Origin: Rhodospirillales bacterium
GTDB lineage: Bacteria > Pseudomonadota > Alphaproteobacteria > Rhodospirillales > UBA2165
Reading direction: 5' to 3'
DNA length: 64,000 bases
NCBI GenBank assembly: GCA_022822205.1
Contig: JAJECC010000062.1
Span: forward strand, 1,831-65,830
Below are positions 1,678-64,000 of this stretch, one piece after another; the stretch's first letter is position 1; every line of letters starts with the position of its first letter. Both the position numbers and the translations under genes were made by a program. The notes under the pieces were generated by a model that did no database searches, was not told where the DNA came from, and saw nothing but the letters and a program-made list of their open reading frames with translations.

Positions 1678-1766
1678 GGCAACCTCCTGTGGGTTCCCGA
1701 CCTGGTGAATTTTTTCTACTAGTAGACTAGTCGGATATCGGCCCGGTGCAAGCCGGGAATTTGGGC

Positions 1767-3071: not shown

Positions 3072-3077
3072 TCCTGA

Positions 3078-3368
3078 TTACTCCTCGGCGGGCGCGGCCT
3101 CGGCGGGTGGTGCCGCGGCGGCGGCGCCCTCGTCGCGGTCGGCCTCGAACAGCTGGATCGGACCCGATGGCATGACTGTCGATATGGCGTGTTTGTAGAC
3201 CAATTGCGTGTGTCCGTCCCGGCGCAGGAGCACCGAGAAATTATCAAACCACGTAATTATGCCTTGCAGTTTCACGCCATTGACCAGAAATACGGTCACC
3301 GGTGTCTTGTTTTTGCGGACGTAGTTGAGAAACACGTCCTGTACATTTTGAGATTTTTCGGCCGGCAC
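3078..3368 (-). CDS. hfq: RNA chaperone Hfq
   Basis: Sm1/Sm2 motifs are present: [39 protein letters not shown]...[10 protein letters not shown]. Confidence 0.97.
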
Positions 3369-3503
3369 TTCTTTTTCCCCCTGATCTCAGACGTCAGATT
3401 ACCGGGCTTCGCCGCTCGGACGGCAAGCTTCGCCCCTCGTGGGTCGAGAACCCACTTTCACGAGCTTATCCTACACGACTCGCCCGTTGCGGGAAGCCCT
3501 TTC

Positions 3504-5035: not shown

Positions 5036-5042
5036 GGCGCGG

Positions 5043-6419: not shown

Positions 6420-6451
6420 CTATCCGATTCCGTTAATGCCCGGCCCGGCGG

Positions 6452-7861
6452 TCAGTTGCCGGCGCTGCGCGCCCGGTCTTCGGACTGGACGCCCAGCGAC
6501 TTGAGTTTTCGATGGAGGGCCGAGCGCTCCATGCCGACAAAGGCGGCGGTGCGGGAGATATTGCCGCCGAACCGGGTGACCTGCGCCATCAGGTATTCCC
6601 GCTCGAATATTTCACGCGCCTCGCGCAGCGGCAGACCCATGATTTCCGAATTGTCGTTGCCGAGCTCGACCGCCGGCGCGCCGGAACGAATCTCATTGGG
6701 AATCATGTCGGAGCGGATCGGTTCGTCGCTCTCGCCGGGCGCCATGATCAGGAGACGTTCGACCACATTTTTCAGTTCGCGCACGTTGCCGGGCCATTCG
6801 TAGGCCTGCAGCGTGGCAATGGCGTCTTCGGCGAATTCGCGGGGCGGGTTACCGACATTTTCCGCCGTCCGTTCCATGAAAAACCTGGCCAGAGCGGGAA
6901 TATCCTCCCGGCATTCCCTGAGCGGCGGGACTTCCAGCGGCACCACTCTGAGGCGGTAAAACAGATCTTCGCGGAACCTGCCTTCGCTCATCAGTTGGCT
7001 CAGGTCCTTGGTCGACGCCGCCATGACCCGAACGTCCACCTCGACGCGGGTCGTGCCGCCCACGCGCTGAAATGTCTGCTCCTGCAGCGCCCGCACGATC
7101 TTGCCCTGCGTTTCGATAGGCATATCGGCGACTTCGTCAAGAAACAAAGTCCCGTTATGCGCCTGCTCGAAAGTACCGATCAGATGCTGGTTTTCGCCGC
7201 CGTCCCCGGTTCCGGCCTCGCGGCCGAACAGGCTGAGCTCGAACCCATCGGCCTGCAAGGTGGCGCAATTGACCGAGATAAAAGGGCCCGCCGACCGGTT
7301 GGAGTTGGCGTGCAGCAGGCGGGCGACCACATCCTTGCCTGCGCCCGCCGGGCCGGTGATCAGGACCCGGCTGTTGGCCGGCGCAACCCGGGCGATGGAT
7401 TGCCGGAGTTGGGTGATGGCTGGAGAATCGCCGACCAACTCGATGTCCCCCCCGGCGCGGCGCCGGAGCTCTTCGTTTTCGCGCTTCAAGGCGGCGGCCT
7501 CGACCGCACGATTGACGACCATGATCATCCGGTCGGCCGTAAAAGGCTTCTCGATGAAATCATAGGCGCCCAGATTGATGGCGGTGACGGCCGTTTCGAT
7601 ATTTCCGTGCCCGCTCATCATCACGACCGGCAGCGAGGGATGCGATTGACGGACCGCTTCGAGGATCTGCATCCCGTCCAGCTTGCTCCCTTCGAGCCAA
7701 ATATCCAGCAACATCAGGCTTGGCCGGCGCGTTTCGATCATCGCCGTCGCGCTGTCGGAATCGTGCGCTTCCCTCGTCTGGTGCCCCTCGTCTTCGAGAA
7801 TCCCAGCGGTCAGCATTCGGATGTCTGCCTCGTCGTCGACGATTAGAATGTCATGCGCCAT
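6452..7861 (-). CDS. ntrX: Sigma-54-type response regulator NtrX
   Basis: Receiver domain (ILIVDDE...LDIWL), AAA+ domain (GPAGAGKD, GREAGTG) and a C-terminal Fis-type HTH. The ATG at 7861 overlaps the ntrY stop. Confidence 0.9.
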   Translation of the reverse strand: MAHDILIVDDEADIRMLTAGILEDEGHQTREAHDSDSATAMIETRRPSLMLLDIWLEGSKLDGMQILEAVRQSHPSLPVVMMSGHGNIETAVTAINLGAYDFIEKPFTADRMIMVVNRAVEAAALKRENEELRRRAGGDIELVGDSPAITQLRQSIARVAPANSRVLITGPAGAGKDVVARLLHANSNRSAGPFISVNCATLQADGFELSLFGREAGTGDGGENQHLIGTFEQAHNGTLFLDEVADMPIETQGKIVRALQEQTFQRVGGTTRVEVDVRVMAASTKDLSQLMSEGRFREDLFYRLRVVPLEVPPLRECREDIPALARFFMERTAENVGNPPREFAEDAIATLQAYEWPGNVRELKNVVERLLIMAPGESDEPIRSDMIPNEIRSGAPAVELGNDNSEIMGLPLREAREIFEREYLMAQVTRFGGNISRTAAFVGMERSALHRKLKSLGVQSEDRARSAGN

Positions 7862-22074: not shown

Positions 22075-22575
22075 ATGAGAATGGCTTTTGTGAGACAGAA
22101 ATATTTGCCGGGCAAGCGGACGCTGATTGCGCTGACGGCCGCTGTCCTCCTCACCGCGTGCGCCCCGCGGGTCGAAATCCGCGGCAACCTGCCGGACCCG
22201 GATTTGCTGGCGGAGCTCGAAATCGGCGCTCTCGATAAACGGCAGGTCGAGGAGATGTTCGGGTCGCCCTCCAGCGTTTCCACCTTCGGCAACGAGAACT
22301 GGTACTACATCAGCGAACGGGCCGAGACGACCGCCTTCCTTGCGCCCGAAGTGGTCGACCGCAAGGTCGTGGTGATCAGCTTCGACGAAAAAGGGGTTAT
22401 CCGCGACTTCGCCTCGCTCGGCCTGGAGGACGGCCGGATCATCGAATTGGTGGAACGCAAGACACCGACAGCCGGTCACGAGATCACCTTCCTGCAGCAG
22501 CTGTTCGGCAACCTCGGGCGCTTCGAAGGCGGCGATGATAGACCCCCCGGGGTGCCCCGTCTCCCCGGCAACTGA
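22075..22575 (+). CDS. bamE: Outer membrane protein assembly factor BamE (SmpA/OmlA lipoprotein)
   Basis: Has the lipobox LLTAC after a signal peptide, and then RGNLPDP......G..K.QV..MFGSPS. Confidence 0.8.
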   Translation: MRMAFVRQKYLPGKRTLIALTAAVLLTACAPRVEIRGNLPDPDLLAELEIGALDKRQVEEMFGSPSSVSTFGNENWYYISERAETTAFLAPEVVDRKVVVISFDEKGVIRDFASLGLEDGRIIELVERKTPTAGHEITFLQQLFGNLGRFEGGDDRPPGVPRLPGN

Positions 22576-22656
22576 TAACCGAACGCGGGACCGTTGCGAA
22601 GAAAAAGGCCGCGGGGCTGCCGCCCCACGGCCTTTGCTTGGCTCGATTGTGGTGCT

Positions 22657-24756
<2,100 letters not shown>

Positions 24757-48140: not shown

Positions 48141-50375
48141 TTACCCGAACTTGTTGGAGCGCGGAAAGCCCTTCGGCGGCAGCCGCCCGGCCTGCGCGCG
48201 CTTGCCCCGCCAGGCCAGGAGATCGGTTTCGGTCCGCACCCCGGCGCCGGTGATCCAGGTGAGCCCGTCGGCGAGGGTGAAGGTCTTGATGTCCGACAAA
48301 CCGCCGTCCTTGTAGCGCTGCAGGAAGACGCCCCGCCCCCGCGCCATCTCGGGCACGTCCGCCAGCGGGAACAGCAGCAGTCTCCGGTTCTCGCCGATCA
48401 CCGCGACCGTGTCCCCCCCGACGATGCAGGCGCCCGCCCCCTCTTCGTCGCCGGAGACGTTGAGGATCTGCTTGCCGCCCCTGGTCGAGGCGACCACGTC
48501 GTCTTCGGAGACCACGAAACCCCGCCCGGTGGACGACGCCACCAGCAGCTTGGTTCCCGGCTTGTGGATGAACAGCGCGACCACGTCCTGATCGTTGCCG
48601 AGATCGATCATCAGCCGCACGGGCTCGCCGTAGCCCCGACCGCCCGGCAGCTTGTCGCAGGCGATGGTGTAGCAGCGTCCGTCGGTGGCGAAGACGATCA
48701 GCTTGTCGGTGGTTTCGGCCTTCAGCGCGAACCTGCCCTTGTCGCCTTCCTTGTATTTGACGTCGCCGACGTCGTCCAAATGTCCCCGCGCGGCCTTGAT
48801 CCAGCCCTTGTCGGAGCAGAGGATGGTGATCGGCTCCTTCTCGATCAGCGCCTCAACCGGCACGTCGACGGCCGCCGGCGCATCGCCGATTTCGGTGCGG
48901 CGCCCGCCGAGGGCGGTCTTGGCGCCGAAGCGCTTGCGGATATCGTCGATCTGGCCGGAGATCGCCTTCCAGCGGAGCTTGGGATCCTTGAGCAGTTTGT
49001 CGAGCTCGGCGCGCTCTCCGGTCAGCGCCGAATGCTCGCCCCTGATCTCCATCTCCTCCAGTTTGCGCAGGCTCCTGAGACGCATGTTGAGGATGGCGTC
49101 CGCCTGGCCATCGGTCAGCTTGAAGGCCCTGACGAGCTCGGCCTTGGCGTCGTCCTCCTCGCGGATGATCCTGATCACCTCGTCGAGGTTGAGGTAGGCG
49201 GCCAGATAGCCCTCCAGCACCTCGAGCCGGGCGGCGATCCTGCCCAGGCGATGTTCGGTGCGCCGCTCCAGCACTTCGTGGCGGTGATCGAGGAAGGCCT
49301 GAAGAACCTCGCGGAGGTTCATCACCCTCGGCGTCTTGTCCGCGTCCAGCACGTTCATGTTGAGCCCGAACCGGGTTTCCAGATCGGTCTGCCTGAACAG
49401 CTGCTCCATCAGCAGGCCGGGCTCCACCGAGCGGCTCTTGGGCGCCAGCACGAGACGCACGTCCTCGGTGCTTTCGTCGACCACGTCCTCGAGGAACGGC
49501 AGTTTCTTGGCGTCCATCAGCTCGGCGATGCGCTCCACCAGCCGCGCCTTCTGCACCTGGTAGGGAATCTCGGTGACCACGATCTGATACTGGCCGCGGC
49601 CCAGCGTCTCGGTCTTCCATCTGGCGCGGATGCGGAACGAGCCCCGCCCGATCTTGTAGGCCGCCTCGACGGTTTTCCGGTCCTCCACCAGTATGCCGCC
49701 GGTCGGGAAGTCGGGCCCGGGCATGAAGCCGACCAGCTTGCCGACGGTGGCCTTCGGAAACTTGATCAGGTGAAGCAGCGCCCGGCAGATTTCGTCGGCG
49801 TTGTGGGGCGGAATGTTGGTCGCCATGCCGACGGCGATGCCGGTGGCGCCGTTGGCCAGAAGGTTCGGGAATCCCGCCGGCATGACCGCCGGCTCCGACT
49901 CCTCGCCGTCATAGGTTTCCCGGAAACCGACGGCGTCCTCGTCGAGCCCCTCCATCATCAGGGTGGCGATTTCGGTCATCCGCGCTTCGGTGTAGCGCAT
50001 GGCGGCGGCGTTATCGCCGTCGATATTGCCGAAATTCCCCTGCCCGTCGATCAGCGGATAGCGCACGGCGAAGCCCTGCGCGAGGCGCACCAGCGCGTCG
50101 TAGACGGCGGTGTCGCCGTGGGGGTGGTACTTGCCGATGACGTCGCCCACCACCCGGGCGCATTTCTTGAAGCCCTGGTCCGGATCGAGCCTGAGCTGGC
50201 GCATGGCGAACAGCAGCCGCCGGTGGACCGGCTTCAGGCCGTCGCGCACGTCCGGCAGGGAGCGGGACATGATGATCGACAGGGCGTAGCTCAGATACCG
50301 CTCGGAGATCGCCTCGGCGAGGCGGGTATCGCGGATATCGCCGGCGGGCGCGGCGGGCAGGGTGTCAGTGGCCAT
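48141..50375 (-). CDS. parC: DNA topoisomerase IV subunit A
   Basis: Reads [27 protein letters not shown], with the catalytic Tyr context AAMRYTE. At 744 aa it is ParC-sized rather than GyrA-sized. Confidence 0.9.
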
Positions 50376-50473
50376 GGCGCTGCTCTGCTTCGTTTGGCGT
50401 TTCTTGTAGGTGCGGTGTCTTCAATATACCAAATCTTGTGTCTGCAACAGGGATTTCCGGGTTCACGGGCGGC

Positions 50474-51211
50474 TCACGCCTGCCGGCTCGCCCTGGCCGC
50501 GAGCCGGGTTCGCGCCGGCGGCACCCCCCGGGCGTCGTGGATGAAGGCATGGCGCTCCAGGAAGTAGCCGGTGAGCGTCAGCCCGTCGGCGATTTCGCCG
50601 GCCGGATTTTCGCTCTCTACGCCCCGGGCCGGGTCGTCGAGCAGGAACGCCGGCAGGGCCAGCAGCTTGTCCTTGTAGGTCTCGCCCGCCGCCCGCGAAA
50701 CCGCGCGGCCCGATTTGGGCGAGACGTAGGCTAGGCCCGTCCCGCCGCCGCCGCCCGCGCATTCGGAGAGATCGAGGCCGAACCCCATGTCGGCCAGGAG
50801 ATCCCGCTCCCACAGGACATAGGATTTCAGCCAGTCATCGCGGCCCAGCCCGGCGATAAATTCCGACAGCCTGACGTAGGTCTCGGGGTGCGGCTCCCGC
50901 TCCGGCAGCGCCGCTTCGGCCACCGCGCAAACCGCCGACAGGCCCGCGAGCCGCATGGGATCGTCCAGCCACTCCGCCGCGCTCGCCTGAAGCAACTCGC
51001 AGGTATAGTTTCCGAGATGCTCTTCCAGCCGCGCCTTCCAGGCCGCCCGCACGCGGTTGCCGGGCTCGTAGATGCCCCGCGCCCGCTTTCCGGCCCCGCC
51101 GCGGACCAGGCCCGCATGGCGGCCGTGTCCCTCGGTGAGCAGGTTGACGATCGCCGCGCTCTCGCCGTGCTTCCGCGCGCTCAGGACGATGCCCTCGTCG
51201 GTCCAGTCCAT
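50474..51211 (-). CDS. recO: DNA repair protein RecO
   Basis: The translation MDWTDEGIVLSARKHGESAAIV.LLT..HGR fits. Confidence 0.9.
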   Translation of the reverse strand: MDWTDEGIVLSARKHGESAAIVNLLTEGHGRHAGLVRGGAGKRARGIYEPGNRVRAAWKARLEEHLGNYTCELLQASAAEWLDDPMRLAGLSAVCAVAEAALPEREPHPETYVRLSEFIAGLGRDDWLKSYVLWERDLLADMGFGLDLSECAGGGGGTGLAYVSPKSGRAVSRAAGETYKDKLLALPAFLLDDPARGVESENPAGEIADGLTLTGYFLERHAFIHDARGVPPARTRLAARASRQA

Positions 51212-51302
51212 CAGGACCGTCCAATTCCCTTTGAGCTATGCAAATTTTGCAACTCGCAACCCATTGAAATCAAACAATTCCAAATTTCGCTGTTTGCCGC
51301 CG

Positions 51303-51340
51303 AATGGACATTCATGGACATTTATGGACAAACATGGACA
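51303..51340. repeat. Four phased 10-bp direct repeats (ATGGACATTC / ATGGACATTT / ATGGACAAAC / ATGGACATTT)
   Basis: ATGGACA starts at 51303, 51313, 51323 and 51333, which is exact 10-bp spacing. The block sits in an AT-rich tract 92..129 nt upstream of the recO ATG. Confidence 0.85.
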
Positions 51341-51388
51341 TTTTCATCCCTCTCGATATGCGCCTGACGCATAGCTCCCGCGGCGCCC

Positions 51389-51463
51389 GGCCGGCCATTC
51401 CAGCCGCGATTCGCGGATATCGGTTCGAGGGCTATATATAGGCAGGAAATGCGCCGGGCGGGA
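51389..51463. repeat. Imperfect direct repeat, copy A (partner at 52598..52683)
   Basis: CGGCCGGCCATTCCAGCCGCGATTCGC...CGGTTCGAGGGCTATATATAGGCAGGAAATGCGCCGGGCGGGA aligns with copy B, with two small indels. Confidence 0.8.
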
Positions 51464-51526
51464 GGGGCTCGCGTTGATTTCGCGCCCGGTCATCGCCGGC
51501 TCGATACCGCCGCCGCCATGCAAATC

Positions 51527-51844
51527 TTACGCGACCGCGCCGAGACCGTTCTTCGCCACCAGCGTAAGAAGCTTCAGCGAGGCGCCGCGCGGGCGCTTCT
51601 CGCCGCGCTCCCACTGACTCACAAGGCCCGTGGTCACGTTCAGGTAGCGCGCGAACACCGCCTGGCTCGCCTGCTCGCGCAGACGGAGCGCGCGGATGTC
51701 CCCGGGCGTCATCTCCTTGACCGGTGTGAGGCACATCTCGTCGAACTTCCGCATGGTCTGTTTCGACATCAGGCCGGCCTCGGCCAGACCTTCCGCCGCC
51801 TCGTGCACGGACGCCAGCGCCTCACTCTTGTATTGCTTGGTCAT
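51527..51844 (-). CDS. XRE/HigA-like HTH antitoxin
   Basis: Has the C-terminal HTH LRLREQASQAVFARYLNVTTGLVSQWERGEKRPRGASLKLL. It overlaps the upstream toxin gene by 23 nt. Confidence 0.8.
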   Translation of the reverse strand: MTKQYKSEALASVHEAAEGLAEAGLMSKQTMRKFDEMCLTPVKEMTPGDIRALRLREQASQAVFARYLNVTTGLVSQWERGEKRPRGASLKLLTLVAKNGLGAVA

Positions 51845-52211
51845 CGCAATTCACCTCGATTATCGTTCCCGTGGCCCGCACCGCCTTCAGCCCCGCGTCG
51901 TCCAGCGACAGATACTCGTGGGCCAGTAGCCGGTACGCCACCAGCTCGTCGCGCCGCAGGTTGTCCCGGTCGCTCTTGGCAAACCCGTGCACGAAGAACG
52001 CCAGTTCGCCCCGGCGGAACAGCACGATCATGCGGAACCCGCCGGACCGGCCGCCGCCCCTGCGGGCAATACGCTGCTTGATGACGCCGCCGCCGAGATC
52101 GGCGTCGATCAGCCCCTCTCCGGCGCGCCGGACGGCCTCGCACAGCGCCGCATCCTCCACCCCCTCGCGGTCCGCGAACCGGGCGAACGCCTTGGTCTTG
52201 AACGTATGCAA
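51822..52211 (-). CDS. RelE/ParE-superfamily toxin (COG4737-like), toxin-first gene order
   Basis: MHTFKTKAFARFADREGVEDAALCEAV...GLIDADLGGGVIKQRIAR.G.G.SGG.R....FRRGELAFFVHGFAKSDRDN matches a widespread RelE-like family that pairs with an HTH antitoxin. Confidence 0.8.
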   Translation of the reverse strand: MHTFKTKAFARFADREGVEDAALCEAVRRAGEGLIDADLGGGVIKQRIARRGGGRSGGFRMIVLFRRGELAFFVHGFAKSDRDNLRRDELVAYRLLAHEYLSLDDAGLKAVRATGTIIEVNCDDQAIQE

Positions 52212-52357
52212 CCTGACCCTCGCGCGCCTTTTTCATCATGCCGGGGAATATAGCACCGAGTGTCATAAAATTCAATTCCCGGAGGTGAAAGGGTGGTGGC
52301 CTTTTCTTGCGGAACTGGCTAAGACATGACCGGTTTCACGACCATGTGAGGTCTTTC

Positions 52358-52594
52358 ATGGTTACGGTCAATCTGGCTCAGGCCAAAGCGCGTCTCAGCG
52401 AACTCCTCGACATGGTGGAGGCCGGTCAGGAGGTGGTCATCACCCGCTGCGGCAAAGCCGTGGCGCGCCTGTCCGCCGTCCGGCCCAAGAAACCGATCCC
52501 GCTGCAAGAACTGGAAGGGTTTCGGGCGGCCATGCCGCGGTTGCGCCGCCCCTCCGCCGAACTGCTGCGGGCGGCTCGGGACGAGCGGATTTGA
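52358..52594 (+). CDS. Phd/YefM family antitoxin, no cognate toxin gene downstream
   Basis: Reads MVTVNLAQAKARLSELLDMVEAGQEVVITRCGKAVARL, with GAGG 7 nt upstream of the ATG. Repeat copy B follows directly, rather than a PIN, Doc or YoeB ORF. Confidence 0.8.
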   Translation: MVTVNLAQAKARLSELLDMVEAGQEVVITRCGKAVARLSAVRPKKPIPLQELEGFRAAMPRLRRPSAELLRAARDERI

Positions 52595-52597
52595 GAT

Positions 52598-52683
52598 CGG
52601 CCGGGCCATTCTAGCCGCGATTCGCCAAGCGGAAATCAAAACCGGTTCGCGGGTCATATAGGCAGGAAATGCGGCGGGCGGGA
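52598..52683. repeat. Imperfect direct repeat, copy B (partner at 51389..51463)
   Basis: CGGCCGGGCCATTCTAGCCGCGATTCGCCAAGCGGAAATCAAAACCGGTTCGCGGGTCATATAGGCAGGAAATGCGGCGGGCGGGA. Confidence 0.8.
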
Positions 52684-52695
52684 AACGCCCAATCT

Positions 52696-52839
52696 TCACG
52701 CCACCCGCGCCGTGTGGTTGGCGGCGCCGAGCTTGCGGTAGAGGTTTTGCAGGTAAACTTTCACCCTCTTGAACTGGAGACCGAACTCTGCGGCGATCGG
52801 GCAGAACTTGCTCAGAGCTGCAAACAAGATCACACTGAA
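52696..52839 (-). pseudogene. 3' fragment of a LuxR/GerE-type HTH regulator gene
   Basis: A 47-codon open frame is bounded upstream by TAA (52840..52842). It translates as ...PIAAEFGLQFKRVKVYLQNLYRKLGAANHTARVA*, which matches the recognition-helix half of the GerE HTH (IA..LG.S..TVK.H..NI..KLG). The LT.RE helix and the whole N-terminal domain are missing. Confidence 0.6.
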
Positions 52840-52975
52840 TTAGCAAATACCAGCAATTGCATAAACCAAACCACTAGAACCGCTTTGCTTGCTAAAAGGC
52901 CAGCGGACCAAACAGAATGCCCAAATCGAAACTTCGGATGAAAATCACACCCTCATAAAGAGGTCTGTCAAATAG

Positions 52976-55900
52976 ATGACTTCAAATTATCACGAAATCC
53001 ACTCAGAGAATGAGCGGAGGTATGGAACCGACATTGGGCGAATTGGGCCTATGTTGCTTACCAACCGATATGATGATCGAACCCATTTCATCTTCGAACT
53101 ACTCCAAAACGCGGAAGACGCGCTAGCGCGGCGAAACGGCTGGGACGGTGAAAAATCGATTAGCTTCTTGTTATCAGATGGCAATCTCAAAATATCTCAT
53201 TACGGAGAGCCGTTCAGCGAACCCGACGTAAGAGGTATCTGCGGAATTGACGAAAGCACCAAGGAGCTGACCGATATCGGTACTTTTGGGATCGGTTTCA
53301 AATCCGTCTACGCGTTCACTGACAGACCGGAAGTTCATTCGGGTGAGGAAGACTTCGCGATAGAGAATTTCGTGTGGCCTGTATCGGCGTCGAGTGTGCG
53401 GAGGAAAACAGACGAAACCATTATCATCCTGCCATTGAAGAAAGATGATGAGGACGCAGCTGAGGAAATCACAATTGCGCTCAAGCTTCTCGGCGCGCGC
53501 ACCCTTCTATTTCTGCGTCATCTGCAAGAGATTAGTTGGCGGGTGAGACAAGGTCCTTCCGGTCTGTATATGCGGACCGAGCCTGAGAAGCTGGATGATG
53601 GGATACGTAAGCTAACTCTAATTGGCCAAGAAGAAGACGAAGACGATACCGAGGAAAGTTGGCTGGTATTTTCTCGAGAAGCAAAAGACAGCAATGGCGC
53701 CCTCGCGGGTCATGTGGAGCTGGCCTTCCTTACCTCCACAGATGAAGAAACAGGGACGACCAAACTGGTCCCTGTGGGCGAGTCCCGGCTGATCGCCTAC
53801 TTCCCGACGATGGTCGAGACCCATATGGGCTTCTTAATGCAAGGGCCGTATCGGACCACCCCGAGCAGAGATAACATTCCGCGTCGGGATGAATGGAACA
53901 GGCATCTGATTGCCGAAACAGCAGACCTGTTGTGCGAGGCGTTGCGGTGGCTGCGCGACAGGCGGTGGCTCAATGTGACCGTGCTGGAGACACTTCCCCT
54001 CGACCAAGAGAAATTTGACGAAGCTCATTTGTTCAGACCAATGTTCGAGGCAACACGTGAAGCGCTCCTGACGGAGCCTTTGCTGCCTCGGTTCAAGGGG
54101 GAATATGTCTCCGGGAACAATGCCAAATTAGCCCGTGGTCGGGATTTGCTGGACCTGTTTACTCCTAATCAACTAGCAGAGTTATTCGAATCTGAAGGAG
54201 AAGTTTGTTGGCTAACGGAGGAGATAACTCAGGACCGGTCACCCGAGGTACGTAGTTACTTGATCCAAGAGTTGGATATTCAGGAGTTCACCGCCGAGTC
54301 GATCGTTCCACGGTTGGACGAGCAATTTTTGGTACACCAGTCTGATGAATGGATTCAAAAGCTCTATGTCTTTCTTGCCGACCGGCCAGCATTGCAAAAA
54401 ATCCTCTCTTCCATCCCTCTCGTACGTCTTGAAGATGAATCTCATACTGTCGCGCTAGCACATGGTAAACCGCAGGCGTTCCTACCGAGCACGGTCAAAA
54501 CCGAGTTTGCGACGGTTAGGTCATCGGTTTGCAATTCGGACGAGGCGCTGGAGTTTCTTCGGTCTCTCGGTCTCACGGAACCAAACGCTGTCGACGACAT
54601 CGTCCTGAACGTCCTGCCTAGGTACGAAGCAGATGAACTGTCGCTTGAGGAGGGCGAATACGCCTCCGACATTGGTCGGATTCTGGCAGCCTTCAAAACG
54701 GATTCCACGTCTCAGCGCGAAAAGTTGGCACAAGCACTTCAAGAAGTGGCATTCGTCATGTCGGTCGATTGTGGGACCGGCGAAAAATTCCTTGCCAAGC
54801 CTAGGGAAACCTATGTCGCGACGGAGCGATTGAGTGCGTTGTTTTCGGGGGTTTCCGGCGTATTGATCGTCGACTCCGAGTACGAATGCCTTCGTGGGGA
54901 GTCGATCCGAGATCTATTGGAAGCATGCGGTGCAACCCGCTATTTGCAGCCCGTCGCCATGGCTCCGGACTTCGATTGGCAGGAGCGCAGAGAAATGCGC
55001 ATTAAGGCCGGATGCAATGATTGGAGTTATGACGTAGAAACTTTGGACTATTCGCTTAGAGGTCTCGACGAACTTCTTGGTTCGATATCATCTTTCGATC
55101 AGGAGGTACGAATATCCAAGGCCGCCTTCCTTTGGCAATCACTGCGTGACCTGCATGAACGGCGCGGTGGCGGCGTGTTTCAGGGCACGTACGAGTGGTT
55201 TTACTATCGTAGTCGGTCTACTTCGTTTCCTGCATATTTCATCCGAGAGCTAAATAAGCGGGAGTGGATTCCTTTAGAGGACAGAGAACTGCACAGACCT
55301 GAAGTGTTGGGGTTTGATGCACTGGATTGGCCGAAGGATCACTTTCTCTTGGATCGGATCACTTTCAAGCCCGCCGCAATTGACAATCTCGCCCAGGAGG
55401 CGGGGATCGAACCTGAGGTTCTGGAATTTCTGAAGCGTTATGGCCTCACGAACATCGACGAACTAAAGTCGCATCTCGATATTGAAGACATCTCGCCCTC
55501 GGACAAAACTGGCGATGAGACAAATTCTCCCCCTCCTGATGACGATGAAGCGGGAGACGATGAAACTGAGCATGACAATAACAACGACGAGACGCATGGT
55601 AGTCATGGCCCGGTGGGAAGAGGAAATGGAACAGGCGGCGGTGCGGGAACCGGCTCACCGAGCGGGACAAAGCACTCTGGTTCCACTGGGGGAAAACGCA
55701 AACCGGCTGCGAACTCCGGCAGGGATAATTTCATTTCGTATGTAGCGGTTGCAAACGCAGATGAAGACCCTGACCCGGACGGACTGACGTCAGAGAAGCG
55801 GATGGCACTCGAGGAAAAGGCCATTAGCTTCATTCTGGACGATGAGCCCGAATTGGAGCGGACGTCTACCGGCAATCCGGGCTATGACCTCTTCGAAGCC

Positions 55901-56161
55901 GACGAATCCGACCGTAAGGTTCGACTAGTGGAGGTGAAATCAATGACCGGCGAGTTCATTGATCGGCCGGTCGGGTTGACAAAAACTCAATTTAAATGCG
56001 CCCAAATGTACGGTGAATCGTTTTGGCTGTATGTCGTCGAACGGGCAAACGACGACAAGCCTCGAATAGTCAAGATCCAGGACCCGGCCGGTAAAGCGCG
56101 CACATTCACTTTCGATCAAGGCTGGTCGAATGTCGCAAAAGTGGACTCCGAGCCGAACTAG
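52976..56161 (+). CDS. 1061-aa sacsin/MORC-like GHKL ATPase fused to a DUF3883-like PD-(D/E)xK nuclease domain
   Basis: The ATG is immediately preceded by an in-frame TAG, with AAGAGG 12 nt upstream. N-terminal motifs are FIFELLQNAEDA and DIGTFGIGFKSVY. The C-terminal region reads GYDLF-x12-LVEVKS...FWLYVVE. Base composition is visibly AT-richer than the flanks. Confidence 0.75.
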   Translation: MTSNYHEIHSENERRYGTDIGRIGPMLLTNRYDDRTHFIFELLQNAEDALARRNGWDGEKSISFLLSDGNLKISHYGEPFSEPDVRGICGIDESTKELTDIGTFGIGFKSVYAFTDRPEVHSGEEDFAIENFVWPVSASSVRRKTDETIIILPLKKDDEDAAEEITIALKLLGARTLLFLRHLQEISWRVRQGPSGLYMRTEPEKLDDGIRKLTLIGQEEDEDDTEESWLVFSREAKDSNGALAGHVELAFLTSTDEETGTTKLVPVGESRLIAYFPTMVETHMGFLMQGPYRTTPSRDNIPRRDEWNRHLIAETADLLCEALRWLRDRRWLNVTVLETLPLDQEKFDEAHLFRPMFEATREALLTEPLLPRFKGEYVSGNNAKLARGRDLLDLFTPNQLAELFESEGEVCWLTEEITQDRSPEVRSYLIQELDIQEFTAESIVPRLDEQFLVHQSDEWIQKLYVFLADRPALQKILSSIPLVRLEDESHTVALAHGKPQAFLPSTVKTEFATVRSSVCNSDEALEFLRSLGLTEPNAVDDIVLNVLPRYEADELSLEEGEYASDIGRILAAFKTDSTSQREKLAQALQEVAFVMSVDCGTGEKFLAKPRETYVATERLSALFSGVSGVLIVDSEYECLRGESIRDLLEACGATRYLQPVAMAPDFDWQERREMRIKAGCNDWSYDVETLDYSLRGLDELLGSISSFDQEVRISKAAFLWQSLRDLHERRGGGVFQGTYEWFYYRSRSTSFPAYFIRELNKREWIPLEDRELHRPEVLGFDALDWPKDHFLLDRITFKPAAIDNLAQEAGIEPEVLEFLKRYGLTNIDELKSHLDIEDISPSDKTGDETNSPPPDDDEAGDDETEHDNNNDETHGSHGPVGRGNGTGGGAGTGSPSGTKHSGSTGGKRKPAANSGRDNFISYVAVANADEDPDPDGLTSEKRMALEEKAISFILDDEPELERTSTGNPGYDLFEADESDRKVRLVEVKSMTGEFIDRPVGLTKTQFKCAQMYGESFWLYVVERANDDKPRIVKIQDPAGKARTFTFDQGWSNVAKVDSEPN

Positions 56162-56165
56162 CCTA

Positions 56166-56199
56166 GCGGAGTGTTCGATACGACGAACGAACGCTCCGC
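56166..56199. terminator. Hairpin between the convergent GHKL-nuclease gene and era
   Basis: GCGGAGTGTTCG-ATACGACGAA-CGAACGCTCCGC forms a 12-bp stem with one T/G mismatch. It starts 5 nt after the TAG at 56159..56161 and ends 9 nt before the era stop. There is no clear T tract. Confidence 0.45.
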
Positions 56200-56207
56200 C
56201 TGAGACC

Positions 56208-57122
56208 TCACGCGTTGTAGTCCAGCCCCCAGTCCCGGTAGCGGGCGGGATCGTCGCCCCACTTGTCCCGCACCTTGACGAACAGGAACAGGTGGATGCG
56301 CTGTTCGAGCAGTTCCTGAAGCTCTTCGCGCGCCGCCCGGCCCAGTTGCTTGATGCGGGCGCCCCCCTTGCCGAGCACGATGGCCTTCTGGCTGTCCCGC
56401 TCCACATAGATGGTCTGCTCGATACGCGCCGAGCCGTCTTCCCGCTCCTCCCAGCTGTCGGTTTCCACCGTCGCCGCATAGGGAAGCTCCTGGTGAAGCT
56501 GGAGATAGAGTTTCTCCCGGGTGATCTCCGCGGCCAGCAGCCGCCGGGGCATGTCCGAAATCTGGTCCTCGGGGAACAGCCACGGTCCCGGCGCCATCAA
56601 GCTGGTCAGATGGGCGAGCAAATCCCCGGTTCCGCCGCCCTTCTCCGCCGAAACCATGAAGGTTTCGGAGAACACGCCTTCGGCGTCCAGGACCGCCGCC
56701 ATCTCCAGCAGCGCGGGCTTGGATACCGCGTCGACCTTGTTGATGGCCAGCACGGCCCGGCCGCCGGTCTCTTTCAGCCGGCCGACGATCCGCCGGGTGT
56801 CCGGGTCCGCTTCCCCGCCGCGGAAGCGGGTTGCGTCCGCCAGCAGGCAGATGTGATCGGCCTCCCCGGCGCCGCCCCACGCGGCCGCGACCATCGCCCG
56901 GTCGAGACGCCGCCTGGGCCGGAAGATGCCCGGCGTGTCGATGAAGATTATTTGGGTATCGCCTTCGATGCGGATGCCCAGGACCCGGGTGCGGGTGGTC
57001 TGGACCTTGGGCGAGACGATGGACACCTTGGCGCCGGCGAACCGGTTGAGCAGCGTCGACTTGCCCGCATTGGGCGCGCCGATGAGGGCGACGAACCCGC
57101 AAGCCCGCCCGTCCTCACTCAC
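56208..57122 (-). CDS. era: GTPase Era
   Basis: Has GAPNAGKSTLLN, DTPG, NKVD and a KH domain. The GTG at 57122 overlaps the rnc stop (GTGAGTGA). Confidence 0.92.
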   Translation of the reverse strand: MSEDGRACGFVALIGAPNAGKSTLLNRFAGAKVSIVSPKVQTTRTRVLGIRIEGDTQIIFIDTPGIFRPRRRLDRAMVAAAWGGAGEADHICLLADATRFRGGEADPDTRRIVGRLKETGGRAVLAINKVDAVSKPALLEMAAVLDAEGVFSETFMVSAEKGGGTGDLLAHLTSLMAPGPWLFPEDQISDMPRRLLAAEITREKLYLQLHQELPYAATVETDSWEEREDGSARIEQTIYVERDSQKAIVLGKGGARIKQLGRAAREELQELLEQRIHLFLFVKVRDKWGDDPARYRDWGLDYNA

Positions 57123-57816
57123 CGGAAACCCGCCGGAGCAGCCGCGCCGCCGCTTCCTGTTCCGCGGCGCGTTTCGAAGGTCCCGCGGCCCGGGCCGCCC
57201 CCCGGCCCTCGATTGCCGCCTCGACCGTGAATTCCGGTTCATGGTCGGGGCCCGAGCGGTCCAGGTAGCGGTATTCGGGGAGGCCGAGATCGCGGGCCTG
57301 GGCCCATTCCTGGAGCCGGGTCTTGGCGTCCTTTTCCGGAGACGTCTCGTCGGCGAGAAGCGGTTCCCAGTTGCGGAGGATGAACGACCGGGCGGCCTCC
57401 AGGCCCGCGTCCCGGTAGACCGCCGCGATGACCGCTTCGCACGCATTGGCGAGAATGGCGGCGTTCTCCCGCCCGCCTTTTCGTTCCTCGCCGCCGGTCA
57501 TTTCCAGATATTCGCCGAGGCCGAGGGTCCGGGCGACGCGGGTCAGCGCCTCCTTGCGCACCAGCGCCGTGTGGCGGTAGGCGATTTGGCCCTCGTCCTC
57601 GGCGGGGTGGGCGTCCAGCAGCGTCTCGGCGATCACCAGGCCGAGCACCCGGTCGCCAAGGAATTCGAGGCGTTCATTGGCCGCGCTCCGGCCCCGCTCG
57701 CCGGCCAGGCTCGAATGCACCAGCGCCCGGCGCAGCAAACCGGGATCGGCGAAATTATGGCCGAGCGCCGCCGCCAGATCGTCGAGACCGGCCCGGCTGC
57801 GCGCATCCCCGGTCAT
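57115..57816 (-). CDS. rnc: Ribonuclease III
   Basis: Has the RNase III signature NERLEFLGD and a C-terminal dsRBD. Confidence 0.93.
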   Translation of the reverse strand: MTGDARSRAGLDDLAAALGHNFADPGLLRRALVHSSLAGERGRSAANERLEFLGDRVLGLVIAETLLDAHPAEDEGQIAYRHTALVRKEALTRVARTLGLGEYLEMTGGEERKGGRENAAILANACEAVIAAVYRDAGLEAARSFILRNWEPLLADETSPEKDAKTRLQEWAQARDLGLPEYRYLDRSGPDHEPEFTVEAAIEGRGAARAAGPSKRAAEQEAAARLLRRVSGE

Positions 57817-58564: not shown

Positions 58565-58881
58565 GTTGTCCGATAAGTCCTTAATTCCAGAAGATGTTGC
58601 GCGCGTTGGCCGGCGAGACCGGCGCCGGCCGCAATCGCGGGGGATCAAGCCAGCGGTTCGCTTTGCTGTCAAGCCGCATCGGCCTGCGGCCGGTGATACA
58701 CGTGGATGGCCGGGTCCGGGCCCGGCCATGACGCTATCGTTTTATGCCTCACCCCCCTCACCCGGCTCCTTCACCGCGATCGCGAATTGGCGCTCGCCGG
58801 GCGCGCCGGGTTGGGTTACCCTGGGGGCACAGGCTGCCTCGATGTCATCGGCATCTATTGCGGAATGCGGGAGACAATTCC

Positions 58882-59316
58882 ATGAATCGTATCGTCGGCG
58901 TTTTCCTTGTCGCCATGGCCGTGATCGTGGCGGCGCACACGGTGGTGGAGCCGCTTTATCATGTCTCGGCCGACGGCCAGCCGTACTCCCCGCTCTGGAC
59001 GGTCCTCAATCCGCTGACGGCTCTGGCCGTCCTCCTGGGCGTGATGGCCGCCTGGCGGTGCAAGCGGGCCGTGGACAAGGAGGGCGAGGATGCGCCGGTT
59101 TCCCGGGCCTTCCTCATCGCCAACACGCTGTTCTTCGGGCTCCTGTTCCTCGGCATCCTGTTCTTCTGGAACTGGTTCAACCTGCTGAGCCCCGGCTTTA
59201 CGGCCATCCCCCCGGAAACCGTCACGCTGGTCTGGATCGTCATCGATGCCGCCTTGCCGCTGTTGTGGGGGGCGACGGGGGTGGCCTTGCTCCGCGGGCG
59301 GGCCACCGCGGCCTGA
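58882..59316 (+). CDS. Hypothetical membrane protein (about 4 TM helices)
   Basis: Reads MNRIVGVFLVAMAVIVAA.... Its stop overlaps the thiolase start (TGATG). Confidence 0.55.
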   Translation: MNRIVGVFLVAMAVIVAAHTVVEPLYHVSADGQPYSPLWTVLNPLTALAVLLGVMAAWRCKRAVDKEGEDAPVSRAFLIANTLFFGLLFLGILFFWNWFNLLSPGFTAIPPETVTLVWIVIDAALPLLWGATGVALLRGRATAA

Positions 59317-60580: not shown

Positions 60581-61348
60581 GTGAATGACATGACACGGAC
60601 GTTGTCCGAACTCGCCGACGAAGCCGAGGAAGCGGCGATCGAGGAGCTCGAAAACAAGATCTTCCTGCGCCAGAACCTCTACGCCCTGGGCCAGGGCGAA
60701 CACGGGCCATACCGGCGGGGCGGCGGGCAATTGAAACCCGGCAAGACGATCTTCATGGGCGACGATCCGCGCCTCCCGGCGATGCCCGACAGGCCCGGCC
60801 TGCTCGACTTCGTCCGCTGCCGGTTCGCCATCGGCGGTCAGCAGCACCTGCTGCAGAGCGCCCGGCTGGCCCGCGGGAACGGCGTCTCCGGCAAGATGAT
60901 CCTGGCGTGCCTGCTCCATGATCTGGCGGTCTCCAGTTTCGTCCGCTCGGACCACGGCTATTGGGGCGCGGCGATGATCGAGCCCTATGTGGACGAGGAA
61001 GTCGCCTGGGCGATCCGCTATCACCAGTGCGTCCGGTTCTTCGCCGATCCCGAGAACGGCTACGAGTATCCCGAGCTCTACATCAAATTCTTCGGCGAAG
61101 GCTACGAGCCCGAGGACTACATCAAGCGGGATTACGAATACGCCCGGAACCACAAGTGGTACGGCTCGGCCCTGGAGATCTGCAAGAACGATCACTACGC
61201 CTTCGACCACGGCATGGTCCTGGAGTGGGATGAGTTCGAGGACGTGCTGGCCGATCACTTCCACGCGCCCGAGGAAGGCCTCGGCAACGACAACACGCCG
61301 GCGTCGCACATCTGGCGGACCCTGCGGCGGCCGAGCAACGGGCTATAG
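60581..61348 (+). CDS. HD-domain-like metalloprotein, function unknown
   Basis: The H89...H113-D114...H125...H148 spacing (QQHLL, LLHDL, DHGYWG, RYHQ) suggests an HD fold. The family was not confirmed. Confidence 0.5.
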   Translation: MNDMTRTLSELADEAEEAAIEELENKIFLRQNLYALGQGEHGPYRRGGGQLKPGKTIFMGDDPRLPAMPDRPGLLDFVRCRFAIGGQQHLLQSARLARGNGVSGKMILACLLHDLAVSSFVRSDHGYWGAAMIEPYVDEEVAWAIRYHQCVRFFADPENGYEYPELYIKFFGEGYEPEDYIKRDYEYARNHKWYGSALEICKNDHYAFDHGMVLEWDEFEDVLADHFHAPEEGLGNDNTPASHIWRTLRRPSNGL

Positions 61349-61374
61349 GCTTGGCGAACCGAATGCCCGGCGCG

Positions 61375-62118
61375 TCACTGTCTGAGTATCTGGCTGAGAA
61401 ATAGTTTGGCCCGGTCCGACCGGGGCGCATCGAAGAACGGACCGGGTTTGTTTTCCTCGATGATCTGGCCTTCGTCCATGAACATGACCCGGTCGGCGAC
61501 CTCGCGGGCAAACCCCATCTCGTGGGTGACGACCAGCATGGTCATGCCTTCCCGCGCCAGATCGATCATCACGTCGAGCACCTCCTTGACCATCTCCGGA
61601 TCGAGGGCCGAGGTCACTTCGTCGAACAGCATGATCCTCGGTTTCATGCAGAGGGACCTTGCGATGGCGACCCGCTGCTGCTGACCGCCGGAGAGCTGGC
61701 CCGGAAACTTGTCGGCCTGGTCGGCGATCTTGACCCGCTCGAGATAGGTCATGGCGACTTCCTCGGCATCGGCCTTCGGCATTCTCCGAACCAGATGCTG
61801 GCCGATGACCAGGTTTTCGAGCACCGATATATGGGGAAACAGGTTAAATGACTGGAATACCATGCCGACTTCGGAGCGGATCGAATCGATGTTCTTGAGA
61901 TCATCGGTAAGCTCGATGCCGTCGACGATAATTTTTCCCTTTTGATGTTCTTCCAGTCTGTTGATACAGCGGATCAGGGTCGATTTTCCGGATCCCGACG
62001 GCCCGCAAATGACGATCTTCTCGCCTCGCGACACATCCAGGTCGATATCCCGCAGCACGTGAAAATCACCGAACCACTTGTTTACTTTATCAAAGATAAT
62101 TACGGGTTCGTCCGGCAT
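61375..62118 (-). CDS. Polar amino acid ABC transporter ATP-binding protein (AapP/GlnQ-like)
   Basis: Has [22 protein letters not shown] and MLFDE. Confidence 0.9.
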
Positions 62119-62136
62119 CGCTGTTCCAAACGGTTC

Positions 62137-63246
62137 CTATTGCGCAACGTTGCTGCGGTTTTCCAGCCGCAGCGAATATTTCGACATGCCGTAGGTAAAG
62201 GTAAAGTAGATAATCGCCGCAAAGACATAGGCCGAGCTGAATATATGCGGCGGGCCGAGCCATTTCGGGTCTTCCAGGGACAGCTGGATAATGCCCAGGA
62301 AATCGCTGAACCCGATCAACAGCACGATCGTCGTCTCCTTGAAGATACTGATGCAGGTATTGACCAGCGCCGGCACCGAATTGCGGATCGCCTGGGGCAG
62401 AATGATGTAACCCATCATTTTCCAGTAGGAGAGCCCGATGGCCTTCGAGGCCTCGAATTGTCCCGATGGTATGGATTGCAGGCCGCCGCGGAATACCTCG
62501 GCCATGTAGGCGGAGTTGAATGCCGCGAAAGCGATGAACGCGCGCACGACGATGTCGATCTTGTTGCCGTCGGGAATGAATATGGGCAGCAGGGCGACGA
62601 ACATGACAATGACCGCGATGTGCGGAACGCCCCGCCAGAACTCGATGAAATAGGTGCAGACCTTGCTGATGACCTTGAGGTCCGAGGTCCTGCCGAGGGC
62701 CAGGATGAGGCCCAACGGAATGGAGCCGAATATTCCGACGGTGGCGATCACCAGGGTCAACAGCAAGCCGCCGAAATTTTCGGGCGAGATATGCTTCAGA
62801 TCGAACACCCCGCCGACGAGAAAAATATACGCGGCAACCGGGAAGCCGATGAACATGGTCAGGCGCAGTTTCCTGGTGATCGGGCCGAAGGAGAATACGA
62901 AGGCGATGATGGTCAGGGCTCCCAAAAGATAGAAAACATTGACCCGCCAATAGAGTTCCTTCGGATAAAGCCCGTAGACGAACAAACGCCAGCGCTCGGT
63001 GATGAATGCCCAGCACGCGCCATCGATGTTCGGGCAGGATTTGGCCGAATCCCCGACCCAGTTGGCGTTGATTATCCCCCAATTGATGACAAAGCCGCCT
63101 ACCTGATAGATCACCCACAAGAGCGCCAGGGTGACCAACGTGTTGAACCAGCTGGAGAAAAAACTGGCTCTGAGCCATCCGATGAAACCGGAGGATTGCA
63201 GGGGCGGCGATTGCGGTTCGATGAAAGGTCTGAGAGCGGGTTCCAT
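62137..63246 (-). CDS. Amino acid ABC transporter permease (AapM-like)
   Basis: A polytopic protein with the EAA-loop-like EASKAIGLSYW, adjacent to the ATPase. Confidence 0.85.
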   Translation of the reverse strand: MEPALRPFIEPQSPPLQSSGFIGWLRASFFSSWFNTLVTLALLWVIYQVGGFVINWGIINANWVGDSAKSCPNIDGACWAFITERWRLFVYGLYPKELYWRVNVFYLLGALTIIAFVFSFGPITRKLRLTMFIGFPVAAYIFLVGGVFDLKHISPENFGGLLLTLVIATVGIFGSIPLGLILALGRTSDLKVISKVCTYFIEFWRGVPHIAVIVMFVALLPIFIPDGNKIDIVVRAFIAFAAFNSAYMAEVFRGGLQSIPSGQFEASKAIGLSYWKMMGYIILPQAIRNSVPALVNTCISIFKETTIVLLIGFSDFLGIIQLSLEDPKWLGPPHIFSSAYVFAAIIYFTFTYGMSKYSLRLENRSNVAQ

Positions 63247-63253
63247 GGTCTCT

Positions 63254-64000
63254 CTACCTTTCCGGAATGCGGGTGGCGCGGTTATAGACCGCCATGACCG
63301 CGGCGATGAACAAACTGACCCCGAGATAGCCGAACAGGGTAATGGCCTGAAGTTCGAGAACCTGTCCGGTCTGGGCGGCGATGGAGCCGCTGAGCGCCCA
63401 GAAGAAATCGGGATACCCGACAGCCGCCGCGAGCGCCGTCGATTTCGTGAGATTCAGATACTGGTTGGTCAGCGGCGGAATGATCAGACGCATCGCCTGG
63501 GGAACGATTATCTGCGAATAGATCTGCATTTGGGTCAGGCCGATGGAATTGGCGGCTTCCCGCTGTCCTTTGTGAACGGACAATATTCCCGCCCGGATAA
63601 TTTCGCCGATGAAGGCGCCGTTGTACAAAGTGAGGCCAATCAGCATCGCGGTGAATTCGGGCTGAAGGGCGACGCCGCCTTCAAAATTAAAACGGCCGAA
63701 TTTCGGAATTTCCCAGGAGACGGGAAAGTCCTGAATCCACGCCGCGACGAACGGAATGACAATGACAATGCCCAAACCGACGATGACGGACGGAAAGGGT
63801 TCACCCGTTCTGACCTGCCGGTTCTTCGCCCATCGCCAAATTCCGAACGCCAGAACGAATGAAATGACGATGGCCCAGATTACCGCCGATGCGCCGGCCT
63901 CGAACACCGGCGACGGAACGACGAATCCTTCGATATTCAGAAAGGCGGCATCGAAAAGATTGATCGACTCCCGCTTCCCCGGCAGCAGCTTCAGCGCGGC
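63254..64000 (-). CDS. Amino acid ABC transporter permease (AapQ-like), 5' end outside window
   Basis: The frame stays open to the window edge; the track's M at 63907 is a GTG inside the frame. Has the EAA loop EAANSIGLTQMQ. Confidence 0.8.
   Translation of the reverse strand, partial: AALKLLPGKRESINLFDAAFLNIEGFVVPSPVFEAGASAVIWAIVISFVLAFGIWRWAKNRQVRTGEPFPSVIVGLGIVIVIPFVAAWIQDFPVSWEIPKFGRFNFEGGVALQPEFTAMLIGLTLYNGAFIGEIIRAGILSVHKGQREAANSIGLTQMQIYSQIIVPQAMRLIIPPLTNQYLNLTKSTALAAAVGYPDFFWALSGSIAAQTGQVLELQAITLFGYLGVSLFIAAVMAVYNRATRIPER

Follow-up and report, generated by a model that had tools for sequence, protein, structure and literature searches.

Separately distributed toxin-antitoxin, relic and Tiamat-type modules between era and recO in a Rhodospirillales bacterium

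The interval between the core genes recO and era was analysed in a 64,000-nucleotide stretch of DNA from a Rhodospirillales bacterium (contig JAJECC010000062.1 of assembly GCA_022822205.1); the whole stretch is called the window, and positions refer to it unless another locus is named. The two flanks are formed by the co-oriented minus-strand genes recO (50474–51211; RecO_N and RecO_C domains, TIGR00613 with E 5e-29) and era (56208–57122, start approximate within 57122–57146; NF000908 with E 6e-106), and parC (48141–50375), rnc (57115–57816) and lepB (beginning at 57821), assigned from the list of open reading frames (ORFs) and family scans, lie on the same strand. From the recO start (51211) to the era stop (56208) the interval 51212–56207 measures 4,996 bp. 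Read from era to recO, it holds a hairpin, the gene tmtA, the stump of a LuxR-family gene, one copy (R_B) of an intergenic element here called R, the antitoxin gene phd, a relE-higA toxin-antitoxin pair, a short native segment (U), the native copy of R (R_A) and the native recO leader (P). This islet consists of modules with sharp edges that are distributed independently among relatives and that show decay. A first-pass annotation had placed lepB, rnc, era and recO on the minus strand with about 5.0 kb between the era stop and the recO start, had listed phased repeats, a direct-repeat pair, a RelE-type pair, an orphan Phd, a LuxR fragment and an AT-richer GHKL gene as contents, and had noted the lack of any integrase, transposase, tRNA or obvious terminal repeats at the outer edges; all of this agrees with the present analysis. 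Integrase, transposase and tRNA genes were found neither in the interval nor within about 8 kb on either side (the nearest tRNA is 17.5 kb away), no repeat pair spans the outer edges of the interval, and no Rfam family matched at E ≤ 1 over 50300–57300. The coding space of 51212–56207 is fully accounted for and leaves no room for an integrase, transposase or other recombinase.

For comparison, a RecO-based scan with one genome per species was performed, which gave 80 loci, 62 of them with era and recO both present and co-oriented. In these 62 alphaproteobacterial loci the era-recO gap was below 150 bp in 25, 150–600 bp in 12 and above 600 bp in 25, and the stop and start codons of era and recO overlap in many of the short-gap loci. 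Because 25 of 62 gaps are shorter than 150 bp, adjacency of era and recO is the norm in the lineage, though it is often broken; the claim that this adjacency is widespread was thus borne out. The closest clade consists of Rhodospirillales metagenome-assembled genomes (MAGs) with RecO 84–96% identical to that of the window (loci L007–L013 and L091), whose alleles are given here in recO orientation. Two Rhodospirillales MAGs have an empty site, era/R/P/recO, with spacers of 384 bp (L012) and 364 bp (L087). L011 has a spacer of 483 bp without R, and L007 carries only a 111-aa orphan gene (orfX). The allele of L013 is era/orfX (inverted)/Phd/U/R/P/recO, without HigBA and without TmtA, and that of L091–L093, which come from the same study as the window, is era/orf69/R2/RelE-HigA/U/R1/P/recO, without Phd and without TmtA. 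In L009, a Gp49/HTH toxin-antitoxin pair is accompanied by two unknown ORFs, and of the window's higA a 143-bp remnant is left. The locus of L010 has undergone rearrangement: IS630-like genes are present, era is missing from the 10 kb upstream of recO, and the rnc-era block has therefore moved away. The alleles differ from genome to genome in the closest clade; besides the two loci with an empty site, five others and the window each have a filling of their own, and the fillings among relatives (orfX, orf69, the Gp49/HTH pair, unknown ORFs) are mutually unrelated and do not form nested subsets. The empty and differently filled alleles that the first-pass annotation had proposed to look for in relatives therefore exist; the relatives do not all share one 5-kb segment of host-like composition, and era and recO are normally adjacent, so neither of the two outcomes that it had named as contradicting it was found.

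Several further observations were made in these relatives. At L010, positions 1–10000 contain IS630-like transposase ORFs (530–2151) and unrelated genes upstream of recO. Contig CAZUGT010000156.1 (L007/L008) shows an inverted duplication, with the era region at 275–1287 (reversed) and at 8106–9118, which is probably a palindromic assembly artefact. In L091, a 304-aa era gene call overlaps the rnc stop. The gene orfX (about 102–111 aa) recurs beside recO or era in either orientation (L013 about 8930–9235, minus strand; L007 9377–9712, plus strand; L010 about 8936–9364), and by eye its N-terminus resembles a HicB-antitoxin-like fold; neither orfX nor the cargo ORFs orf69 and those of L009, L056, L059, L038, L052 and L018 had a match in Pfam, PADLOC or NCBIfam. 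Among more distant Alphaproteobacteria, L023 carries a PIN toxin together with a nitrilase at the site, L018 an OmpA-like protein, L074 an aminotransferase, a racemase and an ABC transporter, and L038 a low-GC orphan gene besides a Mn-catalase and a PAS-GGDEF-EAL protein; further distant fillings include several proteins without a family match. The orphan gene of L038, an Azospirillaceae MAG, is a foreign 417-aa ORF between era and recO (6024–7280) with a GC content of 0.50 in a genome of 0.71 and no family match.

On the recO side, the segment 51212–51510 is native intergenic DNA kept in the empty-site relatives, and the inserted material proper spans about 51511–56187; on the era side, alignment shows homology to L012, L013 and L091 running from era to 56188, and sliding identity gives 98–99% with L013 for the era 3' end up to the junction. 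The description of the whole 5 kb as an unrelated insertion thus holds for about 51511–56187 and fails for the recO-proximal 300 bp or so, in which the phased repeats and R_A lie. The leader P (51212–51385, minus strand, about 175 bp) is conserved at 93% in L013, 95% in L091 and about 80% in the empty-site loci L012 and L087. About 30–40 bp upstream of the recO start it contains the perfect palindrome TGCAAATTTTGCA (TGCAAA-T-TTTGCA, 51239–51251), which recurs with minor differences in L012, L013 and L091 and is a possible operator. Further upstream are four ATGGACA units (TGTCCAT on the recO strand) in 10-bp phase (51304–51343); the repeat pattern has three overlapping matches in the window versus 0.14 expected by chance. 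Copy number varies among relatives, with three in L087 (4125–4151), four in the window, in L013 (9872–9908) and, with one mismatch, in L091 (about 8880–8920), and five in L012 (9798–9844). Since the 7-mers are invariant across relatives and the 3-nt spacers vary, the units are more likely to be protein-binding direct repeats than slippage products, and the array looks like a candidate binding site series for a regulator that recognizes direct repeats. It loosely resembles a Pho box, from which it differs in sequence and in period (10 bp here versus 11). Two TGTCCAT(N3) units were also seen at L007 6055–6071 (mirror copy 3322–3338), upstream of a small membrane-protein gene beside lepB, so the motif may serve more than one promoter; the homologous place in the window (58600–58900) has no TGTCCAT(N3) site.

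A simple sigma-70 scan found no promoter in P, and no terminator-like site was found on the minus strand from higA to recO. As the empty-site spacer of 364–384 bp already holds the conserved repeat array, recO probably has a leader of its own; most likely it keeps this native leader and is transcribed from it, and read-through from the promoter-like site of the toxin-antitoxin cassette is possible. Given that spacer and array are present where nothing is inserted, the earlier conclusion that the insertion must supply the recO promoter is unwarranted.

R is an intergenic element of about 85–95 bp, present as a single copy between era and P in L012 and L087 and in two copies in the window and in L091. 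R_A (51386–51469), delimited by nhmmer and alignment, is of the L013 type and lies inside a continuous alignment 93% identical with L013; the adjoining segment U (51470–51510) begins with GCGGTATCG, as in L013, where U directly abuts the upstream region of Phd. R_B (52598–52690) is of the L012 type with an 11-nt indel and is truncated at GGCCCGGCCG; it shares 92.5% identity with the single R of L012 and L087 but only about 79% with R_A, and it marks an inner module boundary. The repeat pair of about 80 bp reported by the first-pass annotation is therefore real, with its copies at 51386–51469 and 52597–52690 in the repeat search, yet it is a duplicate of a native element and not a stray item of the insertion. 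A dispersed repeat or miniature inverted-repeat transposable element was considered and rejected, as an nhmmer profile of four copies hit the era-recO site alone in the 64-kb window and 90 loci; the Rfam search likewise gave no known RNA for R or the leader, and R did not behave as a structured element, its predicted folds (z +0.2 to +0.5) being no more stable than those of shuffled sequences. R is best read as native, locus-specific intergenic DNA that was duplicated, not as a mobile repeat. Integration of an R-bearing circular fragment through a single crossover could have produced the duplication, as could the joining of two alleles.

The recO-proximal module is a HigBA-type cassette of 784 bp (51511–52294, minus strand), which is precisely absent in L013, where its flanks are contiguous (GGCCACC directly followed by GCGGTATCG). 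The relE toxin gene (51822–52211, minus strand; PF06296 with E 5e-43, the profile being covered over its full length) comes first and overlaps by 23 bp the downstream gene higA (51527–51844, minus strand), identified by family scan as encoding a 105-aa HTH_3 antitoxin. Upstream of relE, the sigma-70 scan found a promoter-like site, TTGAAT-17-TATATT with an upstream TG (52275–52247, minus strand). The cassette occurs in L091–L093 at 95–98% identity without Phd or TmtA. Its coding region was also found, with 88% nucleotide identity, in L094 and L095, unrelated contexts that are both full of transposases, integrases and other toxin-antitoxin pairs, and at 65–71% identity on 49 alphaproteobacterial and other plasmids, where RefSeq labels the homologues as a RelE/ParE-family toxin and a DNA-binding regulator. 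The pair is kept as a unit in L091, L094, L095 and the plasmids, and its presence in transposase- and integrase-rich contexts and on plasmids indicates that the cassette is itself mobile.

The adjacent Phd module (52295–52597, plus strand) has 94% nucleotide identity with L013 and contains phd (52358–52594, plus strand; 78 aa, PF02604 with E 1e-9). Phd homologues that are 81–87% identical are followed 18 bp downstream by a PIN toxin of 148–149 aa. Homology to an intact Phd-PIN pair stops at 52601, in the spacer between the two genes; R_B starts 3 bp past the phd stop, and neither in the window nor in L013 did tblastn with two cognate PIN proteins detect a PIN remnant between era and recO. By these comparisons the Phd of the window is an orphan antitoxin of a Phd-VapC(PIN) pair whose toxin was removed at the gene boundary. 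In the chromosome of L012, which has the empty era-recO site, an intact Phd-PIN pair was seen elsewhere (L104; OZ243926.1, 1296818–1303057), flanked on one side by the remnant of an IS66-type transposase and on the other by a phage-type integrase. Beyond R_B lies the 3' stump of a LuxR/GerE gene (52696–52833, minus strand), comprising the last 45 codons with the helix-turn-helix part (GerE with E 9e-5); the score of 22.5 bits is slightly below the cutoff of 23.5, and profile positions 23–52 of 57 are covered. The frame is closed upstream by stops, a complete LuxR/GerE gene is not present, and no counterpart of the stump was found in the era-recO site of any relative. The stump ends where the GC content collapses at about 52834, which suggests that an earlier resident luxR gene was truncated by the arrival of the foreign segment described next.

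This foreign segment of about 3.35 kb (52834–56161, plus strand; the left edge is approximate, as it was set by the drop in GC) comprises an AT-rich upstream region (52834–52975) and the 1061-aa gene tmtA (52976–56161, plus strand). Nine PADLOC TmtA models match the product (best E 1.6e-68, 5.9e-60 and 9e-58), with query residues 32–778 aligned to profile positions 38–804 of 1302 in PDLC03972. A SACS domain covers residues 30–124 and NOV_C/DUF3883 residues 963–1032, NF047352 (sacsin ATP-binding-like) matches with E 1.3e-21, and sequence matches in the PDB are the sacsin structures 5v44–5v47 alone. The protein is accordingly classified, by domain content, as a Tiamat-type GHKL ATPase with a C-terminal PD-(D/E)xK-like DUF3883 domain, so that the GHKL and nuclease-like domains of the first-pass annotation stand and the gene can further be named as a member of the TmtA/Tiamat defence family. 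More than 4,300 homologues share the two-domain architecture at about 1050–1100 aa; the nearest is 58% identical, followed by a plateau of 50–54% across Proteobacteria, Acidobacteria and one archaeon, and both of two homologues inspected adjoin type I restriction-modification genes. A TmtA relative (49% over residues 1–868) was also noted on a 46-kb predicted viral contig (L099 5001–7586; IMGVR_UViG_3300033109_000079). All residues invariant in an alignment of 20 sequences are present in the window protein, among them the ExxxNAxD GHKL N-box (E41, N45, D48), GxxGxG (G102–G107) and the nuclease-like D971/E986-V987-K988, and since these are kept the gene is intact and its product probably functional. 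No trace of tmtA was found in close relatives. Between the convergent stops of tmtA and era lies a hairpin (56160–56207; fold energy −24 kcal/mol, z −2.2), a possible bidirectional terminator according to the folding prediction.

Composition separates the modules. The flanks have a GC content of 0.65–0.72, and values of 0.45–0.56 occur only across about 52.6–56.2 kb; the overall GC of tmtA is 0.524. GC at third codon positions (GC3) is 0.82–0.91 in the core genes, 0.88 in higA, 0.85 in relE, 0.79 in phd and 0.80 in the luxR stump, versus 0.567 in tmtA, and 52.5–56 kb is the strongest tetranucleotide outlier of the 64-kb window. The gene tmtA is thus compositionally foreign and was probably acquired recently. 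The deviation anticipated by the first-pass annotation is therefore confined to about 52.6–56.2 kb, the toxin-antitoxin part being host-like (GC3 0.79–0.88). Tetranucleotide distance from the window average is also raised at 22501–24500 and 61001–64000 (0.29–0.32 versus a median of 0.22).

We conclude, with a probability of roughly 0.8, that the era-recO junction is a permissive site of fast turnover at which accessory modules accumulate, are exchanged and decay. The native state would be era, a short hairpin, R of about 90 bp, the leader P of about 175 bp with its TGTCCAT repeats, and recO, to which the window allele would have added at least four separate pieces upstream of the native leader: a self-contained relE/higA cassette with a predicted promoter of its own, a Phd antitoxin as the putative remainder of a Phd-VapC(PIN) pair, a second R of the other allele type together with the LuxR-family stump, and tmtA as a presumed recent foreign acquisition of Tiamat type with intact catalytic motifs. 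Modules are most probably gained and lost by RecA-type recombination in the homology of era, R, P and recO, with occasional illegitimate joins, the DNA entering by transfer and not through an integrase encoded by the element. The toxin-antitoxin modules might help to stabilize the islet and tmtA might provide phage defence, and recO would still be transcribed from its native leader, perhaps with read-through from higBA. Decay was seen three times, in the Phd without its PIN toxin, in the LuxR gene reduced to its last 45 codons and in the 143-bp higA remnant of L009. Together with the differing fillings of close relatives, this matches the successive acquisitions and decay at a permissive site that had been suggested at first.

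Some points weigh against this reading. The recombination events are not seen directly and their order is not resolvable. At the junctions of the HigBA cassette, neither a target-site duplication nor microhomology was seen. A double crossover importing TmtA together with R_B from an L012-like donor was rejected, as the era 3' end remains L013-like (98–99%) to the junction and R_B is L012-like. The window and L091, the two alleles with two copies of R, both have the additional copy between era and the toxin-antitoxin module, a placement that illegitimate recombination by chance does not predict. The phage-defence role proposed for TmtA draws on its family membership, and PMC12926258 lists Tiamat as a system of unknown mechanism; a literature search gave nothing specific on this mechanism. 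Finally, distant Alphaproteobacteria frequently carry metabolic or regulatory genes of an ordinary kind, with host-like GC, at this site; era-recO is not specifically a defence hotspot.

The position of the extra R is what an alternative explanation would account for, in which R is the recombination site of an undescribed cassette-capture system, integron- or Xer-like, with its recombinase encoded elsewhere, and orf69, HigBA or the LuxR gene was captured beside R upstream of recO. R lies exactly at module boundaries, with one copy in empty sites and two in the window and L091, its ends can pair as an imperfect inverted repeat with the indel that distinguishes the two R types placed centrally, and toxin-antitoxin cassettes are typical cargo of chromosomal integrons. 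None of the tests run on this explanation supported it. Direct reading of R revealed none of the attC core sites (GTTRRRY/RYYYAAC), and the right-hand ends of its copies differ by 7 nt (GGCCCGGCCG versus GGCCCGGCCGGGCGCCG), so that junctions are imprecise. There was no compensatory change in 23 predicted pairs and the covariation term was unfavourable, in line with the folding scores given above. Beyond the window and the 90 loci, a two-block pattern scan of JGI metagenomes returned one contig, which is another empty site, and a 17-mer scan of viral contigs returned two chance matches with no R around either. No integrase lies within 8 kb of the site, and L013 and L009 carry modules without an extra R. 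An attC identity of R was rejected on the grounds of missing core sites, imprecise ends, lack of covariation, few copies and lack of a nearby integrase, and we regard capture at R as very unlikely. If true, it would extend integron-like mechanisms to the class Alphaproteobacteria, which Cury et al. are said to have described in 2016 as lacking integrons.

Accumulation and turnover at a permissive site were further weighed against an ancestral filled state, from which the shorter alleles of relatives arose by deletion with nothing inserted. Deletion and decay clearly occur at the site, as is evident from the missing PIN toxin, the truncated luxR gene and what is left of higA in L009, and the junctions cannot distinguish insertion of HigBA in the window from its precise deletion in L013. 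This explanation is nevertheless also very improbable, because tmtA is compositionally foreign with its nearest homologue at 58% identity, close relatives lack any trace of it, the fillings of relatives are mutually unrelated instead of nested, and era and recO abut in distant relatives. Arrival of the 5 kb at once, as a composite mobile element or genomic island whose integrase has since been lost, would fit a contiguous block that is partly foreign in composition, and defence and toxin-antitoxin genes often travel jointly. Subsets of the modules, however, occur separately at the same site (HigBA alone in L091, Phd alone in L013), which largely refutes a single event; the toxin-antitoxin genes have host-like GC3 and tmtA does not, a copy of the native element R sits in the middle of the block, and there are no terminal repeats, tRNA or integrase remnant. 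Plasmid and phage records match the HigBA part at most: a plasmid origin of the whole block was rejected with plasmids matching this part alone at 65–71%, and a phage origin with no phage record matching. A single arrival is extremely unlikely in view of these results. Almost no credence can be given to an assembly chimera of co-occurring strains in a metagenome or MAG, even though several contigs are interrupted within the region (L001 in relE, L002 and L003 in higA, and L004–L006 near phd, where they start) and another allele (L091–L093) comes from the same study, since independent contigs from other samples with 100% protein identity bridge every junction from era to parC (L096 spans TmtA, R_B, Phd, RelE and the start of HigA; L001 RelE, HigA, R_A, recO, parC and beyond; L004 and L005 Phd, R_B, TmtA and era). 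The R copies are unlikely to cause misjoins, being only about 79% identical and about 90 nt long. Contig ends in relE, higA or near phd in several samples are consistent with co-occurring alleles that break the assembly graph.

Understood as a permissive site with turnover, the era-recO junction provides a base-pair-resolved case of a housekeeping cluster that was opened and filled without a mobility gene, with empty, differently filled and decaying alleles all from closely related uncultured bacteria, some of them from the same study. It marks era-recO as a point at which the gene order of Alphaproteobacteria is recurrently broken, documents a Tiamat-type gene in a lineage of Rhodospirillales, and includes a toxin-antitoxin pair reduced to an orphan antitoxin that was cut exactly at the gene boundary.

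In E. coli, rnc-era-recO is one operon; era and recO of the window are co-oriented, but even the empty site of its clade has a spacer of 364–384 bp with a hairpin and conserved repeats. None of the marks of an integrase-mediated genomic island (recombinase, tRNA or att target, outer direct repeats) was found. As in integron cassette arrays and clusters of attC sites lacking integron integrases (CALINs), genes alternate with a repeat of about 90 bp whose ends are imperfectly complementary, and the cargo includes toxin-antitoxin genes, but R lacks attC cores and covariation, has imprecise junctions, occurs no more than twice and at a single locus, and is not accompanied by IntI. The relE-higA pair is like HigBA type II modules in that the predicted toxin gene precedes and overlaps the antitoxin gene and a putative RelE/ParE-superfamily toxin is combined with a helix-turn-helix antitoxin; the antitoxin of the window differs in scoring below the curated cutoffs of the MqsA and NadS families. 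The Phd is 81–87% identical to antitoxins of Phd-VapC(PIN) modules that precede the PIN toxin by 18 bp, and differs from these modules in that the PIN gene is missing in the window and L013. Like Tiamat, which Millman et al. (2022; cited after PMC12926258) described as an anti-phage system of one gene, tmtA encodes a single large protein that combines a GHKL/sacsin-type ATPase at the N-terminus with a DUF3883/NOV_C domain at the C-terminus, and it has homologues beside restriction-modification genes; it differs in length, 1061 aa versus 1063–1782 positions in the PADLOC TmtA profiles, most of which match as separate N- and C-terminal stretches. Tiamat has also been reported among the recurrent hotspot cargo of Pseudomonas islands (PMC12629846).

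The closest parallel is found in the accessory and defence hotspots flanked by core genes in E. coli and Pseudomonas aeruginosa (genomic island hotspots, PMC12629846), with which the era-recO site shares a fixed position between housekeeping genes and different small cargo in each lineage; the cargo of the window, too, consists of toxin-antitoxin pairs and a known defence gene without an integrase of its own. It differs in that the islet is very small and the cargo of distant relatives is often metabolic, and neither the era-recO site nor the uncultured Rhodospirillales host group is among the described hotspots. A literature search found no report of an era-recO hotspot. To our knowledge, none has been published. 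The islet is a clear but ordinary core-gene-flanked hotspot, of which the gene families and the phenomenon are already known; its novelty lies in the site, in the group of hosts and in the series of alleles.

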